NCBI GenBank assembly: GCA_965285935.1
Contig: OZ260663.1
Coordinates: 55,118,001 to 55,182,000, forward strand
DNA: 64,000 nucleotides
DNA from: Ophelia neglecta
Lineage: Eukaryota
Direction of reading: 5' to 3'
Shown: positions 1 to 60,732 of the stretch, one piece after another
Layout: the number at the start of each line of letters is the position of its first letter
Numbering within the stretch: position 1 is the stretch's first letter
Notes under the pieces: generated by a model
Database searches by the model: none
The model's input: only the letters and a program-made list of their open reading frames with translations
Told to the model about the DNA's origin: nothing
Translations under genes and position numbers: made by a program

Positions 1-924
1 TCAGACAATAAATGGGGATGAACAATACGTCTAGGAAAGTGTGCTGCAGATCATTAGGGCTGTCCATCCAAAAGGAGAGAACTGGTGGACAAAAGTCAAG
101 TAACAAAAGGTGATTCCACCTGACTGAATGTCTAAAGGTGTCTTCCTATTTCAACCAGTCCAGCAGACCAATGAGACGTATTAAATGTTTAAATACAAAC
201 GCCTGGTTATACTGGAGGGGAGTTGTGATAATATGTGTCTTTACATACGGTAATTAAGGGTTCAGGTGCCCTTTAGCCCCACTAGCACACAAGCCGTGAG
301 AAGCTACCTTGAGGTGACTCAATTGGCAAGCCAACCAAACTATTACCTAGCGGGAAGTTCATATCGCCATAGCAACTCAACAAAAGGGCCTGCCTTCAGT
401 TGACATTGACAGGCTTAAAGCTTTGACAAACAGTGAGGTTCACGTTCACGCTTAGCCTCCTCCTTGCATACCTATCACATTATTTTGCATATTCATGAGG
501 CTCGGATCATGTATCTTTAAGTATAATGGCTGGTGACGAAAACTATCATAACTTTGTAATTCTTTATCAAACCAATTTTATTCCTATGAAAGTAATAGGA
601 TGCACATGTGACATGTACTTTTCAGATGAGATAAGTTGAGAATTTGGCAAGTACGCCCAACAAGCAATCGAAATGTGTATAAAGTGATATTCCACTATCC
701 TCCTCCCATGTACTAGTCAATCACTCATACAAAATGGCTGTTTAAATACCAGAGGCGCCAGGCAGTCTGGCTCGACTACCTCACTGGGCCAGCCGGCTAT
801 TTTTAGTCAAGGCAATCCGCAGTGATCCCCAGAATTTCCTCAAATCTTACCAACAATGAATCACACTAGGAAAAAGATTTAATTTCAAGAAAATTAATAA
901 GACTAGGAAAAGCAGATTACTCAC

Positions 925-1003
925 GACATGAGCTTCGATAGTACGGATTTTGGTAATAGGGATGGTGTCCATGATGGTATGGTTGCTTTTGATATGGGTA
1001 CAT
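925..1003 (-). CDS. TCF12: Putative alternative first coding exon of the E-protein: MYPYQKQPYHHGHHPYYQNPYYRSSC (in-frame upstream ATG at 1030 adds MIGESCWSR)
   Basis: ATG-initiated, strongly biased Y/H/P/Q peptide ending at C|gtgagt in phase 1, the same phase as exon 3; no good acceptor upstream; local CpG-rich patch. Confidence 0.6.
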
Positions 1004-1214
1004 TCTCGACCAGCAAGACTCTCCTATCATTACTATGTGTAAGCCACGCTCACTTTCAACACAGTTCCTGCTATTCCAATACACACTTCTAATTATCCAA
1101 TAAATCAGTGACAAGGGAATTCCATGCTCAAAATGTCCTATGTAGAGTTCCTCGGCAAACTTCTGGCTGTATTTTTGCTTGTCCTCTGTGGCAAACTATG
1201 TACAAGTATGAATG

Positions 1215-1375
1215 CAAACAGAGCTGACTGCACGTTATCGCACCTTTCTCCTCTGGCCGCGAGGGAACCCCAGGTCTCAATTTAAATATTTGTTCTTTGC
1301 AGCTATGTTTATCTACGTCACTTGAGTCTGTCATATAACATAAGAATTTATCCTTTTGCCCTCAGCCAATAGCTG
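1215..1375 (-). promoter_or_regulatory. Putative internal promoter for the alternative first exon (TSS ~1229)
   Basis: The 11-mer CAGTCAGCTCT (1230-1220) is identical to the sequence at the main Inr (32289-32279); CCAAT near 1366; several CpGs inside an otherwise CpG-poor intron. Confidence 0.45.
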
Positions 1376-4300
1376 TCTTATCATTTGCAGATCTCCGAAG
1401 TTATAAACTATGCGCAAGGATTGCCTGTTCGAGGGGATCATTCACAACTTTTATCACTTCAAAAAAGTTGCTTACACCAATCCATTTTTCAACAGGGAAC
1501 ACCAATAACACAAAGCAAACTTTTTAACAGCGAATATACGTCTATTAACACAAACTGGTAAACATGCTTTACAAGTTACAGACGACTTACATACACAATT
1601 AGGGGCTAAGGGTACAAAAGCAGTGATTCCCTCAAGATTGTTTGGAATGCCTCTACCTTTGCCCCCACCCACATTAGGAGATTCCGCTGTACAGTGTGTG
1701 AGAGGGCCCATAAATTGTACCCTTGTGTCACACAAACAAAGGTCCCTGCCTCTCCGAGGGTGTAGAGTTGCACGTTCAGGTCATTTATCACACATAGAGA
1801 GGTATTCCCTGGTGCCGCTATGTCTAGCTGGGCAAACTCTTAGCCAATCAACAAATAGTTGTGACTCAGCAAGCATGACCGAGTTAGCTTGGCTTGGTAG
1901 ACATGCTGGCGCCCAAACAACCCAATACATAATACAGCTGCTAGTAAAATGCATGCAATCTAGGGACTCTCTCTTATCTGAGACTTGGCTAGTAAAAAAA
2001 TTGACAGACGTAAACTTAATATTCCAGCCATGGTAGTTTTAGGCTGAAAGAACATGGGTAAAAACTGTTGGCTTAATATTTGACAGGTCCAATGTATATG
2101 GTGGTGCACAGGCCCTTACTTTCGAAGTGTATGTACCTCCCACAGACTTAGTGTTTCATCCTGATGTCAATGCACAAGCGCAAATAGAAAGTTGATACCG
2201 GCTTCATCCCTAGTTCATTTCTTTAATTTGGACTAGCAATCCCTGCAAAGCTGCTTCCTCACACCTCTGGTCCCTGTCAGGCTTATATTTGTCCTGCTCG
2301 CTGCTTTCACCGGCTTTGGTTTTAATTCAACACAATTCTGCAGAGTAACGGTGCCACACGGTGAATACACAACGACATCCCCCTTTGACTGAGCATCAGT
2401 CCCATGGATCAACAGTTGGACTGAAATATCATTCATATTCTAATAGGGCCCCCCAAACTATAAATTCTCCAAGATCAATGGCCAACACCCCAGCATTGAC
2501 ATACTAAGTAGGAAGAAATTAAGCCTGGCCCTTTCCATCTCTTTTATTCTCACTCAGGCTACAAGCTTCACTTGCTGCACGTGAAAGGGTGAAATATGAT
2601 GGAAATTTGTTGAAGTAAAGCTGAGCAAGCCGACAGCTTCCTCCGGTGAAGCAGGATTGCCGAGAAGGTCCATTATCACGATTCTGCTGTATTAAACAAC
2701 GATTTGTCAAACATCTCTCAATCAATGGGTATTGTCGAAGGCATTAAAGCGAGAGCTTGGTCAATGTGGGACGATCAAAGGCCGCACTCCATGCAATGAA
2801 TCTTACTTCCAATTTTCCATCAGTCAAAGGTGACTTTACCAGCTCCAGATAGTAATTTGGTTGAGCACTATACTGAGGGAGTAAGTGGATCCATCTTGAT
2901 TTTAGTTATCTATGTTTTACTCATCACTGCACTTTGGCCAAATTAATACCCCCTGGTACAAAAACTCTATATGGTAGTTTAAAAATTCTTGTCTCTTATT
3001 AATTCAACAGATCTAACATACATACATGAAAGTAATAGAAACATCAAAAGGTAAAATTTAGTGAACAGCCCGAATAATAAGTGTAAAATACGTTTATGGT
3101 TATGTAAAGAACAAATCTAGATCAGAATGATAGTTGAAAGGGTCTGTAAATGGCTGATACCATCATCCATACAGCTCACCCTGGCCACTTTTTATTTCCC
3201 AGCCTCTTCCATGCACTGCGTACAAAGTATGTTTTTTGAACCTTTTGCATGACAGCACCTGAATTTTATCAAGCATGCTCTGATATGAATATTATCATAT
3301 AAGGGTTATGCACCAATTACTCTACACAGTGCTGGCTCATTTAAAGAATAATTCATACAAAAACACAAATGGTTTGCTTACACACACCTGTGTGCAGTAA
3401 ACCTGATGATTCAGTGTATATTCACATAAATACACAACCTTCTCTCATTGATTTACATACACCAATAGTATTTACACATTAAAGAAAACTATTTCCTATA
3501 ATGTGACAAATTCTATTTATTTTGAGATAATCAGATTTAATTTTGCACATTTTCAGATGTTCCTTTGACATATCCAACAAAGAAAAAGCGAAAAAGCGGA
3601 GAATTTTTTTTAAATCTGAGAATGAATAAACCCGTACCCTTCCCAGTACAGTAGAGTAGGGGGTTTTCAGTTTGTGTTAACTACCTATATGAACAAACCC
3701 TCTGTAACGGGCAAACCTTACTCTTCATTAAAATGACAAGTTATTGAAGAATTTCTGAAGGATGGAAAAGCTTTGATGTTTCACCACAGGTAAAACAGAA
3801 CATGACATATTAAACAATGACTACCCTGTTGAAAGCAACTTTTTATGACAGCTTTTGAAACGTATCTTGACATTCTTCATTCAAGCACTGGTGAAATAAT
3901 TACTTAAACTGCAGTGAACAATGACTGTGCATAGAGTTCATGATCCTTACTTTTTTTTTCAAAGACATTGCAGGCCATGGCCAATTGGCAATATGTTGGT
4001 GTTGGTAAACAGTACTCCAGTATCAGCTATCAAACGTGCTGTTGTACTGGTTACAGTCTAAAAGTACATATCCCAAGGCTGATAATTTGGATAAGACAAG
4101 GTTGAATGTAACCAAATAAAAAGGGGCAATGCTTTCAACTTTGGTGCGTTCCTTGATAACTACGGTTTATATCACGATACTTGAAAGCAAGATTATAGAA
4201 ATGAGGCGACATGCCCCACCAGGCACCTGCTATCTCATTTCAAACAATTGGCAATTATCACTTAAAATACAATAGACAAGAAAAAAAAATATTTAAGGCG

Positions 4301-7300
4301 GATATTAAATGGCTTTGAAAAACCATCTTACATTTTCTTCTTTTCTTATGAACATGTACTTATGAACTTTCGAATCTGATTTAGATAATGCAAATTTATG
4401 TTAAGCTCTGATTTTACAAGGTATTATTATCTGAACATATGTTTCATATTTCTGGCATTAATATCTTAGTACTGAAATTTGAATGGAATAATTAATATAC
4501 TGAAGTTCCTATCACAGTCCTGTTCAACCCAGTGACATGAAAAACCGATCCTGAGCCTATCAAATTAAACAGGCACAATGTTAACGCATGGCTGTGATAC
4601 AAGTAGAGTCCCCAATTACCAAACTTAACACTTCAGTGACACACCATGACCTATATGTGACAGGCATTATGACCTGGCCTAAATATGGCAACATTTGCCT
4701 TTACCAATGCCAGGGTATTGATTTCCACAGTTTCTATGGCACCTCCCATCTGTACAGTGTAATGGTGAAAGCCCACAGCCCGTGAGCCTGCCTGATGATC
4801 AGGTCTGTTTACGTTTTTTTGCTGCTTTGCTAGTGTGTACAGTTGTGAACAGCTGGGGTCTTTACCCGTGACTCTACTCCTGCTCAGCAGTGGCATAAGA
4901 ACATCTGCGGCTCTACCGCCCAACTCCAGCTGAACTTACTCTGGATCACTTGTCTCACCAGCAGCCAGCCCCAGCCTCAACAAGTTGCTCATGGGAGAAA
5001 GAACAACTAAACAGTTCTTTTAATGCTGAGGATGAGAATGCAAGAAAATATGTCACAAGACAATGTTATCAACATACAGTATTTGCATCAGGAATCATAC
5101 ATGTATGTCAGTATTCTGAATAAATTAAATACAATCATTGATCATTTCTAGCAATTTTCAAGTTTTGCTGTAAAAACAATTAGTAATTGGAAAACTGCCA
5201 TTTACTCATAAAAAAAAACAAATCCTTCCTGAGAATTAAAGAGCAAATGAAGACTTCAAAGTAGCAATGTCTGCTATGACAATACTCAATTGCTAACCAC
5301 CTACCTAGCATGCTAACACAATCAAGAGATAATTGCTAGGTAGACGGACATAGCCTTCCCAATACCTAGCCTATTCTACCAACACCCCATGTGCCGGCCA
5401 TTAGACAATTGCGACAGATTGGCTGTCACTTTCAGCTGTGTGCTTGTGGGGAGTTCTCCAGACACCTCCGAGGACTAAATAATCACCATCTCCCGAGTCA
5501 ATACATTGCTGAATCCTCTGTCATTCTGGGATTGCCAGAATACTGGTAATTACCAATCAGCTTCTCACAATTAGCTCAGGTAATTGGAACAGAACTGATC
5601 TGAAGTGTTTCTTATTCAATAACCAAACAGTAGTATGGTATAAGCTAGACATGTCCAGCATTTGTAGCTATGTAATAGCGGACAAAGCACCATTTATTTT
5701 CTGTATTCTGCTAGAAATGTTTTCTGGGAGACTTTAAAATCCATTACTGACCAATATTTATTTGCAGATAAAATTTTGTTTTGGAGCTGTTGAAATTTTA
5801 TTGCTGAAGGCAACAAGAACTAGACTCAGGACTTTGTTGACTCAAAACAGCAAGATACCACAAACGTGTCAGAGAATGCCAGGATCAGGCATAAAATTTC
5901 ATGTCATGACACTTGTCTGACTCCATGTTCCTAAAATACAGGAAGTAGGGTCTGGAAAGTCGTTCAAATACAGCCCATCTCTCGGCACAACTCCCAGATA
6001 GAGTTACAGCATGGGGGAATTAAAAAGACATTCTTTGACTGGGAAGTCAAAATGTTAGAAGGTAACATGGTAATAGGGAGGGAAGCTGATGACAGTCGAA
6101 TGGAAGAAAAACAAAAACATTCAGAAATCTATTTCTAAATTGGCTACTTCACAGCCGGCAGGCAAAAAACACTCGATAATATGGAAATGTCAAATTTATA
6201 AGAAGCCAGGTATTGACAGAGGGAGATTTGTACCAAGATGCATGGTTAATTCAACTGCGTTAAATACAAGAAATTGCTGTAGGCTGTTGAAGTTCACTAT
6301 CAATGGTAATTGTTCATCTGCACGAAGACCACTGTTACGAGGCACAAGATGGTCAAGCAGAAAGATAGCAGCAGTGGAGATAATTCAGAGACAAATGATT
6401 CTATCAATCCTTCAGTAATAGGGCAATTGAGAGAAGCAAGTCCCAGTAGGGCTCTAAAAGATTGGGAAATTCATATTGAGAGACATAAATGTAAGTACCA
6501 GTAATTTGGACAGCCTCATTGTTATTAATACTCAGATGACCGTTCATTTTGTTACTGGTAAAATATCCCACTCAATACCTTCTATAAGAGTTTCAATATG
6601 AGACAAGCAATATTTTATACAAAACAAATAACATTGAAAAATGAAAAGAATTAACAGAGAACTAAACACTTCTAGCCCCTTCAAATATTATCTCAGTATG
6701 ATCATATTGAATATTGTACACTATACATCAATACAAGTTTATCTTTCACCTATCAAGTGAATTGCACCCATTCATCACTGATAACATCAGCTGAAGAAAA
6801 GAAATACATGAATCTAAATCCATAATCTGTCCAGCCACACCAAACTGCCAAACAACACTTAGAAAGGTCACAAATAGCATTATTTAATTCTCTCCAAACC
6901 ATTATTCTTGAAAATTATATCTGACACCAGACTTGTTTACCTTTGAAGATAAGGAGATTGCTTTGGAAAATTAACAAGATTTGTTTCATAATAATTTAGT
7001 CGCAAGAGGGCACACAAGGCTTGGGAACTTGGCAGCTGTTTCTGACATTAGGCTACTAGTAATCAGAAAGATGACAACATCACAACCTCAGAATGCCCCA
7101 GACCAACCAGCGATAAGCTGTCATATAGTAAGCAACATACATTAAATTTATAATGGCTAAATAATCAATAATTTCCAATGCAAAAAATGGTGCTTTACAA
7201 AATCCTTGACACAGATGCATGTAGAGGGGATGCCTTACAGCCATTTTGATTGTTTTTTTTCCGCCCAAGAATATTTTGTTAAGGTATTAAAGGAGATGTT

Positions 7301-19672: not shown

Positions 19673-19757
19673 CAGTTTTGTATCCATGATGATAGTTGTT
19701 TTCCATGCTGTGTCCATTTCGCGATGTTCCACCGGGTGGGACAGGAGGGGAGAACAT
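19673..19757 (-). CDS. TCF12: E-protein exon 3: MFSPPVPPGGTSRNGHSMENNYHHGYKT(G)
   Basis: Acceptor tttttatttacag|ATG, donor ACTG|gtaagt; 85 nt, phase 0 to 1; MFSPPV continues the AD1 motif in frame. Confidence 0.93.
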
Positions 19758-28489: not shown

Positions 28490-28568
28490 CGCACTGAAGT
28501 CCAGCAGGTCACTCAATTCTCTGTCATTCCCTGGGTTCATGTTGTTGTTCTGCAAGTCTGCAACAAAT
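28490..28568 (-). CDS. TCF12: E-protein exon 2: (R)[26 protein letters not shown] (conserved ATG at 28540-28538)
   Basis: Acceptor ttttatttcag|ATT, donor GCG|gtaagc; LSDLLDFS motif; ATG context AACAACATGA. Confidence 0.95.
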
Positions 28569-31792: not shown

Positions 31793-31801
31793 AAGATGGC
31801 G
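31793..31801 (+). promoter_or_regulatory. YY1/Pho consensus site at the start of intron 1
   Basis: AAGATGGCG ~40 nt into intron 1; motif match only. Confidence 0.35.
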
Positions 31802-31837
31802 ACCGTCGAGAGGGTCTGCCACATTTAGAGTGCTTAC

Positions 31838-31896
31838 CTGTAATTCTGCCGATCGCCTGCCTCTGTTCCTCCGACAGACCGGCCGAGATTAAGCAT
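31838..31896 (-). CDS. TCF12: Optional N-terminal coding part of exon 1: [19 protein letters not shown](R), in frame with exon 2
   Basis: ATG at 31896 with an in-frame TAA two codons upstream; 59 nt plus 28 nt of exon 2 reach the conserved ATG with no stop. Confidence 0.5.
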
Positions 31897-31967
31897 AACT
31901 TACTCCAGATTCAATTGCGACAAATTTCCTACACTCCAACCCACTTTCCCACAAAGTTTTCTTCACC

Positions 31968-32012
31968 TTACAACAGGCCGACCGACATTTTCTTTTCTTT
32001 GTGGAGCCGCAT
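31968..32012 (-). CDS. uORF MRLHKEKKMSVGLL* in the E-protein 5'UTR
   Basis: The only ATGs between the predicted TSS and 31905 (32012 and 31988) share a frame and end at TAA 31970-31968. Confidence 0.4.
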   Translation of the reverse strand: MRLHKEKKMSVGLL

Positions 32013-32284
32013 CACCGTTCCAATGGAAATCCCTACGCGTTGTGATACGGGCACTTGATGGAAAATACTCCAAAATAAACTACTCCGCGAATCGCAGCGG
32101 CAAAATCCACAGCGGTAAGGAAAGTTGGTGGTTCGCTGCTGCCAAAATACACGACTTCTCCAAGACTAGACCTGTGTACTCTTCCAGTAATGCAATTTGA
32201 CTGAAAATGTGGTTCAACTTCTCTAAGCTAAACACGATGTCCTGTAGTAGTGGGGTAGTGAAAGCAATGTTGTGTCTGAGAGCT

Positions 32285-32355
32285 GACTGAAGCCATTGAA
32301 TCCACACCAGGCTCATCGCTTGTGATTGACATTGTGGATTCCTCTGGCCAATCAG
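32285..32355 (-). promoter_or_regulatory. TATA-less core promoter of the E-protein gene: Inr TCAGTC (+1 ~32288) and CCAAT box at about -60
   Basis: Minus-strand TCAGTC at 32290-32285; GGCCAATCAG at 32346-32355; TGATTGAC at 32323-32330; lies in the CpG-rich domain. Confidence 0.6.
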
Positions 32356-32697
32356 CGCCCTTCCTGTCTTCTAAAGGTGTCCAACTCGCGTGCCCAAATA
32401 ATCGATTATGCTAAAAAGCCTTTTAGATAGGTCTTCTGTCCCATATCTGTTGCGGCACTGAATATGCCTAGCCTTAGAAGACATTAAAATTTAATATGTT
32501 TAGGCCAGACAACTTAGGCCTAGACCCATCGATGATATAGTAACTTTATTATTTAAAATCCCAAAGGTCCTGTTTTGACCAGAGAAACTAGCTTTGATGG
32601 CGCGAAATATTTATGCTTTCATGGATTCATTCAAATTGGTGGTGAAATAAGTGTAGGTTGTGTGCATGTGTTTGCATTTGGTTTTTTTTTGTTGGAC

Positions 32698-32853
32698 GAG
32701 GGGGATAATTGCTTCCTTTATATACGCCAAACGGGGGGGGGGGGGGGGGGGGCAGGTCCTTTCATATATTTATGCCTATCCCGGGGAGGGGGGGGGGGCA
32801 CTTTCTTTCCTTTATATATGCCAGGGCTATACTTCCTTTCCTTTATGTATACC
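32698..32853. repeat. Degenerate tandem array (~4 units) of G-run + cttcctttatatatgcc
   Basis: Units: ggggg..cttcctttatatacgcc / G20..cctttcatatatttatgcc / G11..ctttcctttatatatgcc / ggg..ctttcctttatgtatacc. Confidence 0.65.
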
Positions 32854-34049
32854 TGTCCCCTATTTGGGTAAGAAGGCACCCAATTAGAATGGGGAAACGG
32901 CACATAGCCTTTAAAAATGTTAGCCCTAGTTAATTAAGGGAAATGGCATGGTCCCGGGGTACGGCATTTCTTACACTAGTGAGAACACTTGTAAAAACAA
33001 ATTTACCCTTTTATTCACCTGTTCAACAAATCAGGATATACCTAGGGAAAGTCAATGGTCTAATACAGTCTCTCCATTCCGGGCCGTGTGCACGCGTCAT
33101 CCTTGACTTTGTAGGCTATGGGCATTATAGTTAGGGCGCTTTGAATGTTGTAGATTCTCGGCCCAGGGACTGTGGCATGGTTATGGTCCGAGGGGGGGGG
33201 GGGGGGTATGGTTCTCGAGACTGAGATGGCCGAAAATAGTCGAAACTTTGAGCTGGACTTCCCAAATATAGCTCGGTGATGATAAGGAGAGTGTATCGGT
33301 GCTCCACAGCTACATGCTTACATAAAACCTCAACAAATGAATTTCCATTTTTTTTGCAAAAGTATGTTGTACAAAGCTCAAAGTTTATATATGAAAAAAG
33401 ACTGATAGTTAACATATCAAGAAATATGTTAACCTGAAAGTTTGTCAGAATGTGTTAAACCTGTCTACTGTAACCCTTAGATATTTACAAAATGTAACAC
33501 TTTGACAATGAATTAGTTCAGGCACTGTGTTCCAAACGATCAGAATACGAACTGCGTCCTTTGTATCACAAAATAGCACGTGGTTGGCATCATAAATGAA
33601 AGAGAACAATGAAAGAAATACATACATATTGATACATTACTCCGAGCTTTCAGGTTGGTAGCAATTGGCCATTTTATGTTTAAAAAATGAATATGGACTC
33701 TACAGGCCTAATCTAATACAAAGAAAAGCAATGTACAATATATATACTACAGGCCTAGACAAATGAATTGTGTGCACATGTGTATTTATATCAACTAAAA
33801 TTGACAAGGTGGAGCTAAAAGGTTAATGCCAATTCTTACATACATACTTTACTCATTGAATAATCATTAGCATAGTCTTGTCAGTTTGTCCAAGTATAAA
33901 ATGCTGGCAATACGCCCAAAGTGAGTTAATTCTAAAAAGGTTGGTGTGAAGGGTTACTCTAATTGTTTGCAGATAACTATAATAAACCGTTTTAATGTCA
34001 AGAAAATATCAAAGTATCAAGGCATGCAGGAGGAAAAAAAGTAGCTCTG

Positions 34050-34450
34050 TATTTTTAGAGGTCGATTTGCAGAAGGGGTGGAGCTCTTCAAATCTTTTAC
34101 ATATAATTGGAATAGTTTTTCTGTACGAGAGGTGATAAAAGGGGTCTTAAAATTCTAAGATGTAAGGAGGCATATTAACATTTCCAAGAGAACGAGGTGG
34201 GGTATGGGCATGAGGAGTATCTCTCGGGAAAACTGCACCCGGGGGAGACTGGAGCTGGTTTTGGGTGGGGACTGCCATGGGGGAGAGGCTTATTCAGTGT
34301 TTGAAAAAGCTACAAAGAGGGGTCGTTTTTGAAATTTCCAGGGTTAAAATGGATTTTAATTGTAGAGGTAAAAAAGGGGTCTTAATAATTCAAGATTCCA
34401 AACTAGATTTTAATATTCCTGGAGATACAAATGAGGTCTTGAATATGGGA
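34050..34450. repeat. Degenerate internally repetitive element (aaaaggggtct-like motif several times), likely TE relic
   Basis: gaaggggtg, aaaaggggtctt, aagaggggtcg, aaaaggggtctt and atgaggtctt recur; ttttaat/gattttaat also recur. Confidence 0.4.
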
Positions 34451-37400
34451 CATGCAAAACGGTTTTCAGGTGTAGGTGCTATGTGGCATAGAACAGTAAA
34501 ACCCGGTATACATCACCTGATGACAGTCATGTCATATAATGGGAAATGTTGACTTTCCTGCACCTGCCTTTCATTAAATTTGATAGAGATCAGTGCCGCT
34601 GGATTGCATTGGCATCCAGGGGGCCAAGAACTTTGAAATCTTCAACCTTAGTTAAATATTAATAGGTTCCCTAAAAGAATTAAAAACAATTTCATTTGTA
34701 AATCTAACATTTCTTTAAAGCTAAAGGCTCTTCATATGCCTACAATTTTCCTACATATTGCCCCTAGTTATGTGTTTATTGTGTGCTAATGTTGGAGAAT
34801 GGGACAAAATCCAAAGGAAGTAACGTCCGGATTTTCGTTTTTCACTGTTGTTCGGCGGGTTTCAGACCTTTTTTTCATTAATTTTTGACGTTTTAAATGT
34901 ATGATTTAATATGAGAGACCATTTAATCATTTAGGGGTCACAGGCAGCATGAGACCCATAGTTTAAAACCAATAGGGGGTCACATGCCCCCCCCCCCCCG
35001 TGAACCCCTCTGGAAGCGCGTCTGGATTAATAAGCCATCTTATTAAAATGGAACGCATTTGAAAGCACCTTAACATTTTCAATGCATAGAAACAAGTAGA
35101 AATGAACTTGAGAAACATTTGGTATGTTTTTTTCTCGAAAAAATATAAGATTTTTCTCCTCTCTTGTTTTGCCAAGAAACTGTTTTTTGACAAATTTACT
35201 GTCGTGTCAGAATGTGTTTAAGCCTACATGTCAACGTGATCATTTATAAGGCATCACAGTCAAAGCTTAGGCTTTAATACCCTTACATCATTTGTCGGAT
35301 ATATAGGGCAACGCCAGGAAAAATGGTTTAATTCCAATCAGACCATCCCGTTTTATCTTTATATCAAAACTCAGTGTATACATGTGTGAACTTTGCCTGA
35401 CCTTTACCTCGTTTAATTTGTAAGGGTGGGTACATTTTAGCCAGGGGTATCGTATAGCACACATGCAGGGAAAGTTTCCTGGAATATGCCCGGGTACAAA
35501 AATGCCATCTTGGCCATCTGTGGCTGTAGTTAACGATAGGCCTTAGAAAGGCCTAACGCATTCAGTGCGCAAGTAGATAGATCAATCCATGAACTATTCG
35601 AATTTTGAAAAGATAATCCACCAGTAAATGTGTATAACATGCGACACGTATTGTTCTACTTGGTTGAGAAATTTATATGGTGGCCGCACATTAGTTTGCA
35701 GTCTTAAGCCTAAGAGAACAATGAAGAGACCCCCTCTTCTTGCTGCGGGGCATGTCTCTCCTGATAATATCAGCTTTTGGCGCGTGCACCTGCTTATTTA
35801 GGCCAATCAGAAACTCAATCAAGTCGGCCAAAACAAATACGGTCCCCGAAGGTAATAGTGCCTTTATACCTATACTGGAAGTATGCTTTATTGACATTTC
35901 AGCTATATATAGGTAAGGGCTATCATGCACGTTTTAATTTCTTTTCAAGATTTGGGACGCGCTACCCGGGGCGCTAACCTGCATACCCACACTATCGGGT
36001 AGTACTGTACATATGGGGCCTGTGAGTATATGTAGGGTAAGAATGCACGTCTAAATTTGGCCTCACTTTCAGGAAACAATCCATAATCAATGGATTCCTC
36101 GTTCCGATCCCTGTAAAAATTGAATAAATTAAAAATTGGACTTGCTAATGTATGCCTATATTGATATCCTATTGTGTTCCGTAACATCAATAATCGATGA
36201 AGTATGGTCTAGGTGGCGGATGGGTTTTTTTAGTATGCAAAAAATTACCAGATATACTTTTGCCGACTTTTAAATAAGTACGCAAGATTTGAGCGCACAT
36301 GCACGACTTGTGGCTTCATAAGACGGGGCCTAAATCCTACCTATCTCTTGAAATACTTAATTTGACTAATACGGATCTATAAAGGCCTGTTTATGTTATT
36401 TACATTTAAACTTTTTGTAGGATGCAGCAATATGTATATACATAAGTCTAGCTAGTGCAAGACCTAAACATTATAGGCACTCCCTATTTCTAGTTCTTGC
36501 TTATAAATATATGTATAGGCCCTATAGACCTACTTTCATTAGACCTGCTAGGCATAAATAGATTCTAAAGATTCTTACATGCATGGTGGACATTTCCCAC
36601 GTGTCTCAAGTTTTCCCCGACGTCTGCTCGTTTGACATTAGGGGGCCAAGTCAACAATGTATAAGCCTAGACCAGAAAATATATGTACCTCTTGGCCTGA
36701 ACAAAGGCGAGAAAACAGGCCGTGGCATGTCCTAGGCACAAAGCTTAAAATCTGTATTATATATATCCTATAGTCAGCAGGCCTACCATGCACGCAAGTT
36801 TAATACCGTGATATTTTTCAAAAAATACGTTCGTGACAATCAAATACTGGCCGAACACTTTTAGCCGAAAAGGATTTATCCATAAAAAAATGAAGCTGAT
36901 AGAAGGGCGAGCCACTTTAAAAGTACTCTTCCAACAAGTTAAATTGCTACGGAAGGGCCTTTTCGTGGAGCAATGAAGTAGAAGCGGCACATGATTCCGG
37001 GCGAAAGCGCCTTTTTCTCGGGCGGGCGACTCAGCTCAATGCTTTCCACATCAGGATGCCGCTCACGGGCTAGGGAAGTCAGCGAGATTGAATCACGAGC
37101 TCACTTATTGTCGATCGTGTTGCGCTACAAATTCACCTCCACTCATTCGAAAGCCATCCGAAAGGCGACGAATAACTCGAGAAATACTTAGAATGCGCGC
37201 CAAATTGACCTGCCTAATCGCGTGGCAAGAGGAGTTGATTCAAATAAACTGCTGGGCATTAAAACTCCCGCCGACCGAACCCGGGGGTCGGCGAATGAAA
37301 GGGAGGCAATTTCTGTCTCAGGTCGTGATATGACTTATGTCGCTTTAAGTGTGACACCAAGTGAAGCGGGGGATAAATTCGATTAATTCCCTAGAAAGAC

Positions 37401-40400
37401 GAAAGGTCGTGAAATGAGGAAAGAGATGGCGGACTAGACACTTGGAGAGCTTGGGGCCTATAGCCGCATAGTTATAGTGCTGTGAAGAGGGGTGGCTGAT
37501 GATTAGCCCAGGCGACCCTTCCATTCGGCCGCCCAGATAACTCGGCTGACTGCTAACGAATCAGTCGCCCGATAAGCCAACTGTCTCCGGACCTAGGGCC
37601 GGCTGATGGATGGAGGAGAGGAGAGCGCCTCCTAAACGGGGTCACCACCCGCTTACTGCTGGCTGAATGCATCGGCCGACAGCGGCCAACCACCTTCAGC
37701 CCGAGAAAAATGTTTAATATGACTGTTTTGATAGGCCTACTCTTCTTGGCCTTATATTATGCATATGATGTATAAACTATAATTATGAAGGAAAATGTAT
37801 TAATTTGCATCAAATGTGTATAAAAAAAACTATAGGGCAATTGCCTGTCGTTTTTGGAGAGAGAGACAGACACATATAGGCCTGGCAAATAAAATGTAAC
37901 GTTACAGCAGGCAAATTAAGCGAGGCATTCATTATAATCAACTCAGATAAAATTAGACCCAGTTTACGGAACTTAATGAGCCTTTATATTTATATTATAT
38001 AACAGAATGGGCCTAATTAAGCAACGAAACTGAGTTGGATATACATTTAGAATACGCGCGAATCGATAGCACATGCAGGGACAGGCAAGTATATATTGTA
38101 CGGCTCATAATCATATAGACAATTGGCCATATGATTAAAGCGCCTCTCATGTTATTGGTTTGAAGCCAAATACAGTATACGCATGGACTCGACCAATAAT
38201 TCATTAGAATATATCAGATGTTTACTTTTAAATCTAAACAACAATAAATGACGATTATATTGACATTAAACCTATAGATAGAGTGCTTCTTTCCTCATAA
38301 ATAAGCTCAAGGGCGCTTAATACTATAAAAAGGAAAGTACTTTGCATAAAAACTCAAATGAAATTTAATTAAAGAGGATTTAAAAACATAATTTAAACAC
38401 AGTGGCACACATTTATTTCCCGAAGGGTCAATTACCTGAGCTGGTAACTAGTCTGCTTCCGACCAGTAGTACCCGATCTTTGTTCGGCCACCGTGCATCC
38501 TTGACCGTAATTCGGTCCTTTCGTCAAGTATGGGCATATATATGCTGTTGTATAGTCTTTACACTGACCAATCTTCAAACTAGTTTTAATGTTCAGGCCT
38601 TCTGTTAATTTAACCTGACAGTGCATAGGAGGTTGTTAAGCCTGTAACGAGTCCAGCTATATAGAAACAGGAAATGGAGTTTGAAAGGCAGGAGTGGGAT
38701 GAAGGGAGGAGGCTGCATGGCAGGGCTGGGAGGGGAGCGAAGGCAAAAAAAGTGAGAGGGGTAGTGGTGGGAGGAAAGGGGGGCCTGGAGTGTGTGGGTA
38801 GAGCTAAGGGATTGATGGTAGCAAAGCAAAAGTTGTGCTAGGTATAGTGGAATTTTTAACACGAAACAATCGTCTATTTCCCTCTTGGTCTCATTATTAG
38901 ATGTACATGGTTTGACAGCCAGGAGAGTAGAATGGGGTTATTTGTCCGGTTAGTTGTCATTTATATTAAAGATAACCCGTACGTGTTGCCTGCAGCCATA
39001 ATTTATATTTCATATTGCGACAGAGTGGCTTATATTATTTTGCTTACACCCCTTGAAATAATGAAATAAAGTACAGAACTCTACTTTTAGGAGTTTCATT
39101 TTAATAGTTTTAAACCTTTTTACATTTTCTCACCCTTAGTTAGTCGCTAATGAAAACTGCTCTTCTCAAATACACCTCCAATTTCAATGCACTACTGCTC
39201 CATTTAATGTGGTTGCCCACGGGTCACTGCTAGTATATATATTACTGGGATGTTAAAGAAGAAATGATCTCGAAACGCTTTGAGAAATAACTAGCTTTGT
39301 AAGATATCAATTCTATTCTATTCTCCTTGTTTCTATATGGCTAGATCAGTGGCTATATAGATCTAAGCCTTGTTCCATGCTGAATATAAAATTCAGTGGC
39401 CGATCAATCATTCAATGTGAATTAATTTTAAAAAGGAGTCAACGTAATTTCAAATATATTCAAAGTCGCCAGTGGAATTTTGCGTTAGGGCTGTCCTCCG
39501 TTTAAGAGAATCCTATATATATGCGCTGGACATGTAGGTTAGCCACAATGTATATATACAGAGGCTCGCATAAAATAAATCAGAAATACCTGGAAATGTG
39601 AATATTATATATAATTTTATAAACTTAGTAATTTAGCAACCGCACAAATGCTTATACATGATTGGGTGCCATTTTTTTGCCTAATGTTTGCAAAATTAAC
39701 TTAACTCAGGGTATAGCAATGCGCCGGAATGGCAAGTCAACGAAGGTAGTGAACTCTTACAACGATAAGACGGGGTTTTCAAATACCCTAGGTGATGCCT
39801 TCACTATTTTATCGCGGTTTAAGCACGCTTGATTTGCGTTTAAATAGTGTATTAGGGAACGGTCTCCCACGAGCAAAATACGAGATTAACCGAGTGCAAG
39901 AACTTTATCTACGAGTGCGTAATAAGTCTGGTTACTCACTGGGATTGTGTGCCCATTGTCCCGCGTACTAACTTCCTCCATTGATTATAAATTGCATGTA
40001 TATTGCAGCAATATGGAGAGAAAATAAATTCAAAACCTTGCTTAAATTGGCTAAATGTTATTGCCATGGATCTGTCGTAGCAAATTACAGCTAGCGTCTA
40101 TGAAATAAGTTTTGCTGTTGAAAGTTTGTGAAGGACACGAAATATTGACTTCAGATGTTCTCAAGAAATTGCACGAAATAGATACTGCATCCATGATCAT
40201 TTTTAAGTCCACATTTAAAGCGTCTGTTAGGCCTATTCAATCTTTTTCGTTCATTGAGCTTCGAATCCTGATTCAGTGAGAACAGAGTACAGAAGTATGT
40301 GGGGCTAGCATAAAAAATTGCCAGGAACATACGATAAAAGTAAATAGCAATTAAACCATTATTTGTCGACATATTATCACCTGAGGAAATGTACAACAAA

Positions 40401-42509
40401 GGCAGCTTAATTCACTTTAACTCCACACACAATATTATACCTGTAAAATAAAACTCCCGCTACCCATCTGCCCCGGGGTTTCATTTCACGAAACTGTTTG
40501 TTTTATTTTGTTCCCCAAATAACACTTTTTTGTCTTACTAATGTGTGCTTATATTGAGAGGAAAAACAGCGAAGTTCGTCGATCGGTCGACCTGAAAATG
40601 ACACCACGAGTCTATCTCTCCATCACACAATGTGACATAATTGTTTTCGGTAGAATGTCATCTCAGTCGAAGCTCTTTAGATCGGATTGTTCTTGCTGTG
40701 CGGGAATAGTTTGATAACTGCATATACATCGTTACATATACACATGAGTAATGCGTATGTGGTGAGGAGGGCGGCTCGTATTCTGCACGCCATGATCGAT
40801 ACTAAATCGATAGATCACAGCTGTTACCATTCTATTCTGACTTTGACAAACGGTCGTATCGTGTTGTTCCATGCAAGAATGGCAAGAGACGACGCTCTTT
40901 CTATGTGGGCATGTTTTTAAATGTATTCCAACCAAGCTATTTGTCTCTAAGGTCATACTAACTTCAAGTGCAATAATGATTGGACCTTTGAACGTTCAGT
41001 TTAAATCGTCTACTTTTGCGCTGAAGTTCTAACGGTCGCTGGCAGGCCCTATCATACGTGCAAAATTAGCACACATAGGGCTATGTTATGTCGTGCATCT
41101 AGTCTACAATATAAACAAGATAGGGTATTATAAAAACAAGTTAATGAATTATGTGTTTCACATGAATTTCTCTAAACGTAATATTTTTCCCGAATCTGTT
41201 AATTTCGGGAGGGGGGGGGGGGGGGTAATGGATGCACTTTTGTATTGCATTTTTCACATATTAATGGGTAATGGGGGGAGGGGGGCATCAAGCTCGACTA
41301 AGCCTTACGAACAGTAATAGTTAGACAAGGAGCCTGTGGCACACATCTTTGTATATGTATGTATTTGTGTGCAGGCCAACATTCAGTCCCATACCATGTA
41401 TGAGGACAAATGTGTGGTTCTGCTAGGATATATGTATTTATTAAACAGCACCTTCGACCCATTCCCTTAGCTTATTATTTGTAATTTACATATTCTACAC
41501 AACATGATCGAGATTATGCATTTTGATCCAAAAAATCAGCAAAAAGCGGGTGAGCATGTTTAGAATAGCATCAGGCTAATTACATTTACTCCACATAAAT
41601 TTGACCCAGGGCGGTTTCAAACTTAACATAGGCGCATAGATATTGTGTATTATGGTGGAAATACAGAAACTTATTTCTTGCACACATACTTAAAAACCCG
41701 TCTATAATTTAATGCTTAATCCTATAGTTAGGCTGAAGTGGAAAAGCAGCTTCCCGTTTATGACACTGAGTCAGGGACAACAGGGGCTCAAATGCAGCTT
41801 TCATTTTACTGCATCCCTCCTTCATATGCCATTAGGATAAGAAACATATACATCTGCAAACATATCCTGTTTAGCAATGATGGAAACAATAAAAAGCGTG
41901 CATTGAGTAGATGTTCATGTTGAACATAGAGCTCGGAGCTAAATGCCACCATCATATGGGAGACAATTCCCACTCCGACTCCAACACAGTCAAAGCGTGA
42001 GGCGGGTCGAGTGGTCAGGCGATATGACAAGTGAGCAGGACTGTGTATGTGGCCAGCAAACCACGCCGTTTTGGAGCCATCAACAGGCCGAGAAGTCTGC
42101 AGGCTATTGGCGGGGACGTTTGTCTCCATAAAGTGGTGCTGGCGGATGAGAGATTCTCGGCGGCCGACTACGCGGTGTGGGCTCAGCCGGCGGGGCGCAG
42201 GTGGTCTCGGGCAGGCACGCTCCCTCCTGTGTCTTATGTCTCTCTTGTTGAACAGGAGCCAGCAAACATGTCTGAAGACGCCCATCGAAGGAGGGACATG
42301 GTGGCACGAATAGCTACCGGCAGGAGGCAGGCCGAAAACCATGAGAAAGTTTTTAAAAGACGAATTGGAGGGTTCCCAAATCCACAGCAGGCCTAGTAAT
42401 GTTTTGTATACATATATAACGATGTAGGCCCCTATACATCTAAGCCTATCATTAAGCTAACCACAGAAGACCAAATTTATACATGTATACTTTGGTAATT
42501 GAAGGCACT

Positions 42510-43095
42510 GTGGTTTGAAGCAATGCAGTGTCCTTCCTAATCCATTATCAAAGTGTTATATTTTGTCAGAAGGGCCTTTATATAGAATGTAGGGAACTGA
42601 GTAACATACATTTTCGGACAAATTTACAAAATTGACCTAATGCATTTCATTTAAAGTTTTTGAACCATGCATGTTTGGTAAATGTAACATCACCAGTAGA
42701 GAAGATTCAACTCATATATGTATATGTATAGCAACATATATAGGCCTGTGCATATTTCCCTATTTAATAGTGAAATTCAATATAATTCGGCAAAAATAAT
42801 AAATGAACAGAAACTATCTGGATGTCTAAAATTATTGCAAGATCTGAGGTAACTATTGCGAATAACCTGAAAGTTGAGAGTAATGTATCAAAATGTATGT
42901 AATCGTTTCATTATTCCCTTTCATTGATGGTGCTGACCATGTGTTATTTTATGATACGATCTTACAAAGGATGGCTTTGGCATTATGACTGTTTGAAACG
43001 AAGTGTCTGAACTAATCCATTGTCAAAGTGGTACATTTTGTCAGTATCTAAGGATTGCAGTAAACAGAGTAACTTATTCTGACAATTTTCCGAAC
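42510..43095. repeat. Diverged direct repeat pair 475 bp apart
   Basis: 42537-42569 and 43012-43044 match at 30 of 33 positions, with weaker similarity in the flanks (gtttgaa..agtgtc; gagtaac..gacaa). Confidence 0.75.
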
Positions 43096-45179
43096 TTTCA
43101 GTTATGTATATAGGTAGTCCCTGTATCAGATATTATATTAAGATATTATATAAAGATATTAACCACTGATTAACAAGCTTTAACGGATTAGGCCTAAAGC
43201 ATAAATTGTGATGCACCTTCGCATGCAAGCCACCGTCATGCATATATGCCACCAAATATTATAATTCTGTCATTTAAACAGATTGCTAAGCCTGAAACTG
43301 AAATTTCTAGGTGCATGCTGCAAGAAGTATAAAGCGTTTGTGCGTGCGTGTGTTGTTGGAGGGGGGGGGGGGGGTCATGTTTGTGCCGTATGGCCACCCT
43401 CCCCTATGCTTCTCTATACGTCTCTATGACAACCATGTTGTTAAATGATCAAATGGTACACAGAGTACTGGTAAGCCTGAATATTTTTGCTATAGAGCCA
43501 TACTTATATATATTCTAGTAACACACGTGATGTGTAAAGTGTACCGACACGTATTATGTATTTCCTGATATGTGACATATGGGCCCTACATGACACCCCT
43601 TCTTCTTCCAAATGTTCTCGGAATGAATCAACTAATTAATTTTTCTGCCAAAGGTAACGTTTTAATTGTATTAGTTATAGTCGTATCCGGGATGGGGTCG
43701 ATAGGTAATAGCAAGTTTATCTGTATTTATATCAAGACGCGTGGAAATAAGGTAATTGACTTAATGAAGGTAAACACCTTTTGTAGGTTTTTTGTTGTCT
43801 AAAACTCGTTGTTTTTTTACTTTCTCACAGGAAACGGGGTAATTAGCAACGTTTGGCCTTTGGCATGTTGCTAGATAAGGCCGCGATGTATCATTGCGAG
43901 CTTGCTGATTCTGGCAGAACGCCCGCAGCCGCAGCTGGGGGATAGACACCTCGGACCGCCGAGACGACCCGACGGGTAGGGAGAGGGCGGCACGGCTAGT
44001 AGGCCACGCTGGAAGCGAAGGATAGAAGACAGAAAGCGCGGCTCCCCAAACCCTGTACTAGACCTTCCGCCACCCCACGGCAGTCTAATAATCTAGGAAC
44101 CAGCTGCCAGACATCGGATGCGAAGACCCGAAAATCCACTTTACCTTACCCGTGTTGTGTGCGATAATGCTCTAATCGCTCAAACGCTTGTCTAAATATT
44201 CCCATTAAGAATCGGGTTCAAGGAAGGCATTTTCACTGTAATCTTTAATCCCATAACACTAATGACAAGGCCAAAGATGGAACATTGTTTTTCATTAAAT
44301 CCATCAAGTTTGATGAAGGTAATATCGGTTGACAAAATTGCTTTGAGAAATTGAGGATGGCACTTTTCTTATATTATTGCAAGAAGTTCAATTTGATATA
44401 TCTGACAGGTTGATGCCAGTTTTAACCAAATCTATTATTAACTATGCCCAGGAAAAAAAATGTTTAAAAAAATATATTAAGTAACTAAATAAATATATTT
44501 GCAACGGACAAATATATAGTATCACTTATGACAACAAAATTACACGTGCAAGGCAACTTTATAAGATCCCTCAGGCAGAAAGATAGAAATAAAGGTATCA
44601 GCAATATCATGCACTGTTGGTTATTTATAACAAATTTCTTTATAACCAGAACAATATAATTTCTACTCTACACATGATTTTTGCCAGTATTGAGCAATAC
44701 TAGTAAGCCCTAGTCTAAAGTACACAGACCTTAAATCCTTCACCAGGGGTCAGCTGTTTATATTCATCCGACTTTGGTGACTATCAATAGAACGCGAACA
44801 TTGACTGAATTTTAGAAGATTAACCGCTTTAACTATATAAATGCCAACTATTTCACTATATATTTTCATCAATAATTAATTATGTTTCAATTCTTTTCAG
44901 AATGAAATATCAAGAACCACTTGAAAATTGTACACTGTACTTGAGTTTACTGGGGAGCCTAGTAGTAGTGAAGCTCAGTATAGATTTCTTGTCTATTGCC
45001 AGTGCTTGTTTAATGAATGCTGGGAACATTTTGGAGACCAACAGATGGAATACCAGAGTGTGTATAATATGTGGGTTAAAGCATAAAACTGGGAACATGT
45101 GTTTACATTGAACAGGCTACGTTAAACCAACTGTTGCTTGCCAGATATTGATCTGGCCTTACCTAGACTATTGTCAATT

Positions 45180-59806: not shown

Positions 59807-60050
59807 CTGAAAGAACAGGACATCCTTTTTTTCTTGAAGAATAAGACATAGAATTTTCATTTGTTTGACAATTGTTTCAATTATATAAAACATTCCTGAA
59901 GAAGCTATCTTTTGCTCTCTGCATACTTTTTCAGTTTGTTATTTTTCACTTCTACAGTAGGCCACACCTATATAATATTATACTTTTTTTAAAAAATAGG
60001 GAGACAATATACAAAGAAATTGATATCGATGGCTCAAAGTTCATATTAAC

Positions 60051-60311
60051 CTCAAGTTGGGTTCGCTCTTCTTCAAACTTATCTTGCTGCAAAGCAACAC
60101 CTCTTAAAGTGACCACCAGGGCTGCGCCACCACAAACTACAGGACGAGTCTGGAACTGCCACTGCTCAGTAAATACGCCTGCATTTGGGGACTTGAATAC
60201 AAAGGGAAACTTCATGGTGTCTCCCGGCAGGATCACTCCACTACTGGTGTTAAAGTAGAATCTCTGCACCTTGGCATTCACCATGTCAAATGGATTGGTC
60301 TTGGGAATTTT
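60051..60311 (-). CDS. MYCBPAP: MYCBPAP exon: KIPKTNPFD...QRFYFNTSSGVILPG...EEERTQLE (Ig-like/ASH-type region)
   Basis: cttgcag|AAA ... GAG|gttaat; 261 nt, phase 0-0. Confidence 0.94.
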
Positions 60312-60732
60312 CTGCAAGTATTGATATAGGATATGATTTTTTTTGCTGCATTTTTACTTGATCTTAATCCTACATCTTCAACCAAAACCAATGATTGCAA
60401 ATAGAAAATTTAAAAAAAATTAAAGATTTCAATACCTCTGCCAATGGTGACACCCACCCAAATAAACTTTAAAAGCCCAGACATGTAAAGTGGTAACCTT
60501 TGAGTTTGGTTATCAAAGTTGTAGTCTGCCCGAAAATACTACTTAGATAGTGGCCTGAACTGGGCATAACCAAAGGCAATGGTTAAACAAATTTTTCTAT
60601 TGAATAGTGCTGAAATAAACACATAAATATATCAAATACAGCTTATGAAATACAGGTATTGACATTTCAATACCACTTACATTCCCCTTAAAACAGCATA
60701 AAACTCTAATGGATTAAGATAAAAGTGCCAAC

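Follow-up and report, generated by a model that had tools for sequence, protein, structure and literature searches.

A candidate tyrosine-rich first exon, distinct from the Alt exon, in intron 3 of an E-protein gene of Ophelia neglecta

The window, a 64,000-nucleotide stretch of Ophelia neglecta DNA (G000:C5:55118001-55182000), contains exons 2 and 3 of a gene on the minus strand and the whole of the intron sequence that separates exon 3 from the frame studied here. The 120 kb downstream were also analysed, and negative coordinates continue past the first base of the window. Exons 2-11 were traced with their splice sites and gave a canonical chain without a stop codon, while the later exons and two bHLH exons were located by tblastn and Pfam. 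Exon numbers follow TCF12 and equal TCF4 numbering minus one; they were taken from TCF12 because exon 1 was not located. The assignment of this gene to the E proteins, made in the earlier note, agrees with our results. PF00010 (bHLH) was present on two exons, the LDFS motif of AD1 and the conserved exon chain matched TCF12/TCF4 exon by exon, and the best protein matches were named TCF4/TCF12. The first of these matches came from a siboglinid annelid, and a second siboglinid ranked third, among molluscs and nemerteans. By these features the gene encodes a class I bHLH E protein (TCF3/4/12, daughterless), and the host is likely an annelid. At 59952-60353 (minus), the window also includes part of the neighbouring gene upstream: an exon for a MYCBP-associated protein (PF14646, E 2e-28).

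The candidate frame runs on the minus strand from an ATG at 1003 to 925 and comprises 79 nt (26 codons + 1 nt). As the earlier note had described, it encodes 26 residues with 7 Tyr, is followed by GTGAGT, ends in the phase of exon 3 (phase 1) and lies about 18.7 kb into intron 3, 18,670 nt from the end of the upstream exon 3 at 19673. The peptide is rich in Tyr, His and Pro, includes four Pro-Tyr pairs and starts with MY; the YYY motif is absent. The exonic side of the donor (GTC) is weak, and the ATG has an A at −3. When the candidate was joined to exons 4-11, a continuous reading frame with zero stops was obtained, and ATG, donor and frame were all compatible with splicing to exon 4 as the next internal exon. 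The internal first exon proposed earlier is probably right. A further in-frame ATG at 1030 would add 9 residues to the start of the peptide, and the reading frame is open for 92 codons from 1195.

The candidate locus is single-copy DNA, and no second genomic copy was found at the DNA or protein level. There was no tandem repeat close to the exon and no Rfam family in window positions 1-5000. Among the four Pro-Tyr units, all differences fall on third positions, an observation that is partly circular and bears only on a recent DNA repeat, which it excludes as their source. Three DNA runs, all from one sample and possibly the data behind the assembly, covered positions 1-3000 without joints. They departed from the window at 5 single bases in 3 kb, including position 987, where Lys6 is replaced by Arg (a conservative change and a single case) and the frame stays intact. 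Just upstream of the candidate, at 1334-1244 (minus), lies a further ATG-to-donor phase 1 frame of 30 codons with the donor AAG/GTGCGA; it could be an alternative donor of the candidate's promoter, or chance.

Table 1. Coordinates of the candidate, its surroundings and the related exons of the host gene (window positions unless prefixed)
Feature	Position	Strand	Basis
Candidate coding exon	925..1003	-	frame, donor and phase from sequence; exon status inferred
5' splice site GTGAGT	919..924	-	sequence
In-frame upstream ATG	1028..1030	-	sequence
Acceptor-like site, weak, in phase	1186..1205	-	score 8.3
Putative promoter region	1221..1370	.	motifs as a set not above background
Exon 3, starts MFSPP, = TCF4 exon 4, phase 0 to 1	19673..19757	-	exon tracing
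Exon 2, LDFS motif of AD1, = TCF4 exon 3	28490..28557	-	exon tracing
Exon 4, partner of the candidate	G000:C5:55110941-55111053		outside window
ATG exon before exon 7	L003:3673-3738 = -16262..-16327	-	intron scan
Alt exon	L005:5102-5161 = G000:C5:55083102-55083161 = -34839..-34898	-	intron scan and peptide match

The earlier statement that the exon has no acceptor proved too strong. An in-phase CAG before 1185 reached an acceptor score of 8.3, compared with 8.6-12.2 in nine real acceptors; donor and acceptor scores are simple in-house scores, and 8.3 was attained by 17.6% of all YAG. With this CAG and 92 open codons, a 261-nt cassette (1185-925) is possible. The candidate might therefore be the 3' part of an internal exon, either as a cassette of 261 nt, phase 1-1, lying between exon 3 and exon 4 and leaving LDFS in place, or as a second exon behind a non-coding first exon. 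Besides the acceptor-like CAG itself, this is favoured by the 64 open codons upstream of the ATG, seen at 2-3.5% of positions, and by the canonical chain, which has no stop with the cassette included. However, the acceptor scored lower than all nine real ones, the upstream 61 codons are hydrophobic-rich, unlike E-protein N-terminal exons, and no Pfam family was found in the 92-codon frame holding the candidate. We consider an internal exon decidedly unlikely.

Upstream of the candidate, the CpG patch that the earlier note had read as a promoter sign was at background level. The 6 CpG in 1201-1400 were equalled by 15.5% of 919 windows (200 nt), and the 9 CpG in the 400 nt upstream of the candidate by 22% of 459 windows (400 nt). 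Only the densest 60 nt fell in the top 4.2% of 3066 windows; 4 CpG lie in 1221-1280. Nor did the CCAAT box hold up as a promoter sign: it lies at 1366-1370 in reverse orientation, and at least one CCAAT occurs in 60% of 400-nt windows; three, as upstream of the candidate, occur in 8%. A TATA-like TATTTAA was found at 1288 and a CRE half-site at 1320. The TATA-like word would imply a start near 1258 and not at 1229, as suggested before. The conserved Alt exon of this gene, described below, has only 2 CpG in its 400 nt upstream, so a lack of CpG is not evidence against a promoter at the candidate. Several CpG-rich islands were located at window positions 31800-44200, although the window as a whole is CpG-depleted (observed/expected 0.37); they probably represent the E-protein gene's canonical promoter together with enhancers.

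We compared the candidate with all sense-strand ATG-to-donor mini-frames of 15-45 codons in 184 kb. By Tyr fraction (0.27) it ranked first of 292, followed by its own extension from the ATG at 1030 and then by the conserved Alt exon, whose third place gives the ranking a positive control. A Tyr fraction of 0.20 or more was found in 0 of 257 antisense mini-frames. Third-order Markov copies of intron 3 attained 0.269 in 1/300 cases and 0.20 in 8/300. The candidate was also the only place in six frames of the 184 kb with at least 3 Pro-Tyr pairs within 22 open codons. Hydrophobic residues (L/I/V/F/C/W) account for 1 of its 26 residues, unlike most background frames. The top rank among the 292 frames and the single match in 300 simulations suggest that the candidate is a real coding exon. 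We rate this as fairly probable and go no higher, because the scores are simple and the Tyr and Pro-Tyr criteria were post hoc, having been picked after the peptide was known.

That selection also speaks for the opposite reading, in which the candidate is a chance product of intron sequence and takes no part in splicing. The promoter signs at background, the dozens of other ATG-to-donor phase 1 frames within intron 3 and the failure to find a homologue of the peptide point the same way. The Tyr fraction matched by a single simulation, the sole Pro-Tyr cluster and the scarcity of hydrophobic residues argue against chance, which we regard as unlikely, though it has to be reckoned with.

Homologue searches with the candidate peptide gave no match in the word-index search and no usable match in the protein atlas. 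A HMMER match to P0351 (E 4e-4) was judged to be chance, as it was a repetitive 282-residue frame with 7 residues in common. Two metagenome loci were rejected: at L015 the matching frame was short and lay on the strand opposite a long ORF of unrelated kind, and at L014 it covered query residues 1-25 only, nearly all upstream of the exon. We also retrieved 205 invertebrate ids, 181 of which were full-length with bHLH. Among these full-length isoforms, 143 carried LDFS, 17 joined exon 3 without LDFS, 16 joined exon 9 and 5 were of other kinds. A Tyr-rich peptide joined to exon 4 was found in 0 of the 181; the named annelid isoforms numbered just 2, both Alt forms, so an annelid-specific exon would escape this survey.

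Scanning all downstream introns revealed an ATG exon of 20 codons in phase 0, located 35.8 kb downstream of the candidate and outside the window. It lies 2,406 nt before exon 9, and the joined chain has no stop. Its peptide contains one YY pair and no YYY. The peptide resembled the N-termini of two annelid proteins, P0001 and P0003 from Ridgeia and Lamellibrachia, and that of snail P0318, with a shuffle p of 0.001 in each case; it also resembled three vertebrate Alt peptides (shuffle p 0.014-0.017). According to PMC9385190, the HEBAlt exon sits between exons 8 and 9, and TCF4-A uses the same junction as the exon found here (Sepp 2011, PMC3137626). By position, phase and sequence, this exon is the Alt orthologue.

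The earlier note had presented the candidate as a possible counterpart of HEBAlt/E2-2Alt. That role belongs to the exon 35.8 kb downstream; the candidate is not the Alt counterpart, because a proper Alt exon stands elsewhere in the gene, at the vertebrate junction and in the vertebrate phase. The candidate sits before exon 4, five exons upstream of the Alt junction, and is in phase 1, not phase 0. The note's own remark that the vertebrate Alt exon joins further downstream and in another phase was correct (exon 9 and phase 0). Orthology to the vertebrate Alt exon, the homology option of the note, would account for the MY start and the Tyr-rich composition. However, comparison of the candidate with the three vertebrate Alt peptides gave shuffle p 0.66-0.74, with no likeness beyond composition, and comparison with two annelid Alt peptides gave 0.20-0.21. 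When the candidate was joined to exon 9, 5 stops resulted. The peptide mismatch and these stops, together with the other intron, the other phase and the far better scores of the downstream exon, tell against orthology. As the conserved junction is occupied by the proper Alt exon, this reading is refuted and its probability is close to nil.

The reading that we favour, if only slightly, is that the candidate is a lineage-restricted alternative first coding exon with its own upstream promoter, spliced in phase 1 to exon 4. A putative promoter just upstream would start the transcript, which would then splice the candidate in phase 1 to exon 4. The predicted product would drop exons 2-3 and hence the LDFS co-activator motif, and would keep the rest of AD1, the basic NLS-like exon 8, AD2 and bHLH. 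The earlier description of this product as AD1-less went too far, as exons 4-5 (= TCF4 exons 5-6, part of AD1) are retained. By analogy with TCF4 isoforms without full AD1, the isoform would still dimerise, bind E-boxes and activate more weakly, under its own promoter. The LDFS motif is needed for AD1 activation via histone acetyltransferases, as cited in PMC3137626. In HEK293 reporter assays, TCF4-F gave about 21-fold and TCF4-B 150-250-fold activation (PMC3137626). Given the loss of LDFS and this difference, a weaker activator under its own promoter seems the most likely role of the candidate isoform.

The closest known arrangement is that of human TCF4 exons 5a-c, which join the equivalent of exon 4 here and whose isoforms F, N and R keep the AD1 part of exons 5-6 (PMC3137626). 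As would be the case for the candidate, these isoforms begin at the same junction with a short unique N-terminus in place of the LDFS and MFSPP exons, and the distal AD1 is kept. The 5a-5c peptides have 5-19 residues with at most one Tyr, and no likeness to the candidate is visible. HEBAlt (TCF12) and E2-2Alt/TCF4-A share with it the internal first exon, the MY start, the Tyr-rich peptide and the loss of LDFS. Unlike the candidate, Alt is spliced in phase 0 to exon 9 (TCF4 exon 10), with loss of the whole of AD1 and of the NLS exon, and its vertebrate peptides contain YYY. The candidate is probably an extra start exon of a known kind; it is not the Alt counterpart. In HEBAlt, activity rose about 10-fold with the phosphomimic change YYY-to-EEE and fell by half with YYY-to-FFF (PMC9385190). 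More speculatively, the clustered tyrosines of the candidate might be kinase targets that raise activity on signal; control by Tyr phosphorylation has been described for HEBAlt only, and for the candidate it is an analogy.

A third Tyr-containing ATG exon was found before exon 7. It has 22 codons, 4 Tyr, phase 0 and a strong donor, and a strong acceptor with a long T-tract lies 11-14 nt upstream. It could serve as a start exon preceded by a non-coding one, or it could take the place of exon 6 as a phase 1-to-0 alternative. At this junction, abalone P0010 carries an N-terminus of equal length (22 residues, 5 of them Tyr), though the sequence match was not significant (p 0.16). In all, the host gene holds three candidate start exons that are rich in Tyr; intron 2 showed no convincing first exon of Tyr-rich composition in phase 0. 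In mollusc annotations, short and often Tyr-containing first peptides stand before exon 3 (P0011, P0097, P0156, P0319); in several molluscs they hold 1-5 Tyr. The mollusc isoforms (abalone P0010 and P0011, Pomacea P0318 and P0319, Gigantopelta P0097, Patella P0156) resemble the candidate product in being LDFS-less, and several have Tyr-rich N-termini. They differ from it in joining exon 3, 7 or 9 and not exon 4, and they are known as database gene models.

These positions would fit a wider arrangement, which we put forward as rather unlikely: lophotrochozoan E-protein genes may hold Tyr-rich start exons arranged like a ladder, with one internal promoter after another, before exon 3 (molluscs), exon 4 (here), exon 7 (here and in abalone) and exon 9 (across phyla). 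In each case, an N-terminus gated by tyrosine kinases would take the place of the constitutive LDFS co-activator dock, and a different share of the protein would be kept. Such a ladder might go back to copies of the ancestral Alt exon or to selection that acted repeatedly. For the candidate itself, descent from an early duplication of the Alt exon, with a shift upstream and a change of phase, would be compatible with its being an alternative first exon. The candidate and the Alt peptide of this gene have PYYR in common (p 0.12), their DNA alignment score was matched by 3 of 336 intron-3 windows, and the best of the 19 peptide comparisons of the candidate, with the snail Alt peptide, gave p 0.028. 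However, no signal survives multiple-test correction, the DNA match is explicable by common Tyr and Pro codons, and the phases differ. We find a duplicate origin quite unlikely.

E proteins are common partners of proneural, myogenic and blood bHLH factors. Invertebrates usually have one E-protein gene, so isoforms are their main way to vary the protein. If the ladder were true, one gene would offer all class II bHLH factors a graded series of partners that depend on signals. If the repeated Tyr-rich N-terminus is real, it would suggest that the tyrosine switch of the HEBAlt type is of general use and has been employed repeatedly, and natural variants for testing Alt-peptide function would be at hand. 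A conserved alternative E-protein form in sea urchin was reportedly described by Schrankel and co-workers in 2016 (Dev Biol 416:149), going by the title, so that an Alt form in an invertebrate is not new in itself. They are said to argue for a bilaterian origin, and Alt exons of annelids or molluscs may already be listed in that work or its supplements. The Alt orthologue common to annelids, snail and vertebrates supports an ancient Alt promoter, a point that is probably already in print. The sea-urchin study appears in the reference lists of PMC6433000, PMC5660111 and PMC6494969, and further related literature includes PMC3346973 and PMC6317319. No publication on the 5' exons of lophotrochozoan E-protein genes came up in our literature search. 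In itself, a further internal start exon is nothing unusual, since human TCF4 has 21 alternative 5' exons (PMC3137626); the interest lies in a Tyr-rich N-terminus repeated at three positions of one gene.

Three further features were noted in the 3' part of the host gene. The two bHLH exons are in tandem (L007, G000:C5:55061214-55061345 and 55060701-55060835, minus) and are probably mutually exclusive, like E12/E47 of TCF3 in vertebrates. One is similar to the type common in molluscs and annelids and the other to the cephalopod/centipede/vertebrate type, and both types occur among Lineus isoforms; a literature search found no publication on tandem bHLH exons in invertebrates. At about G000:C5:55068914-55068973 (L006, minus), the beginning of the AD2 exon is present a second time in part, 1.5 kb before the main copy. 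In the intron after the AD2 exon, at about G000:C5:55064535-55064880 (L007, minus), there is a stop-terminated open frame of 115 codons, rich in Tyr, Gln and Asn, which is possibly an alternative last exon giving a bHLH-less product.
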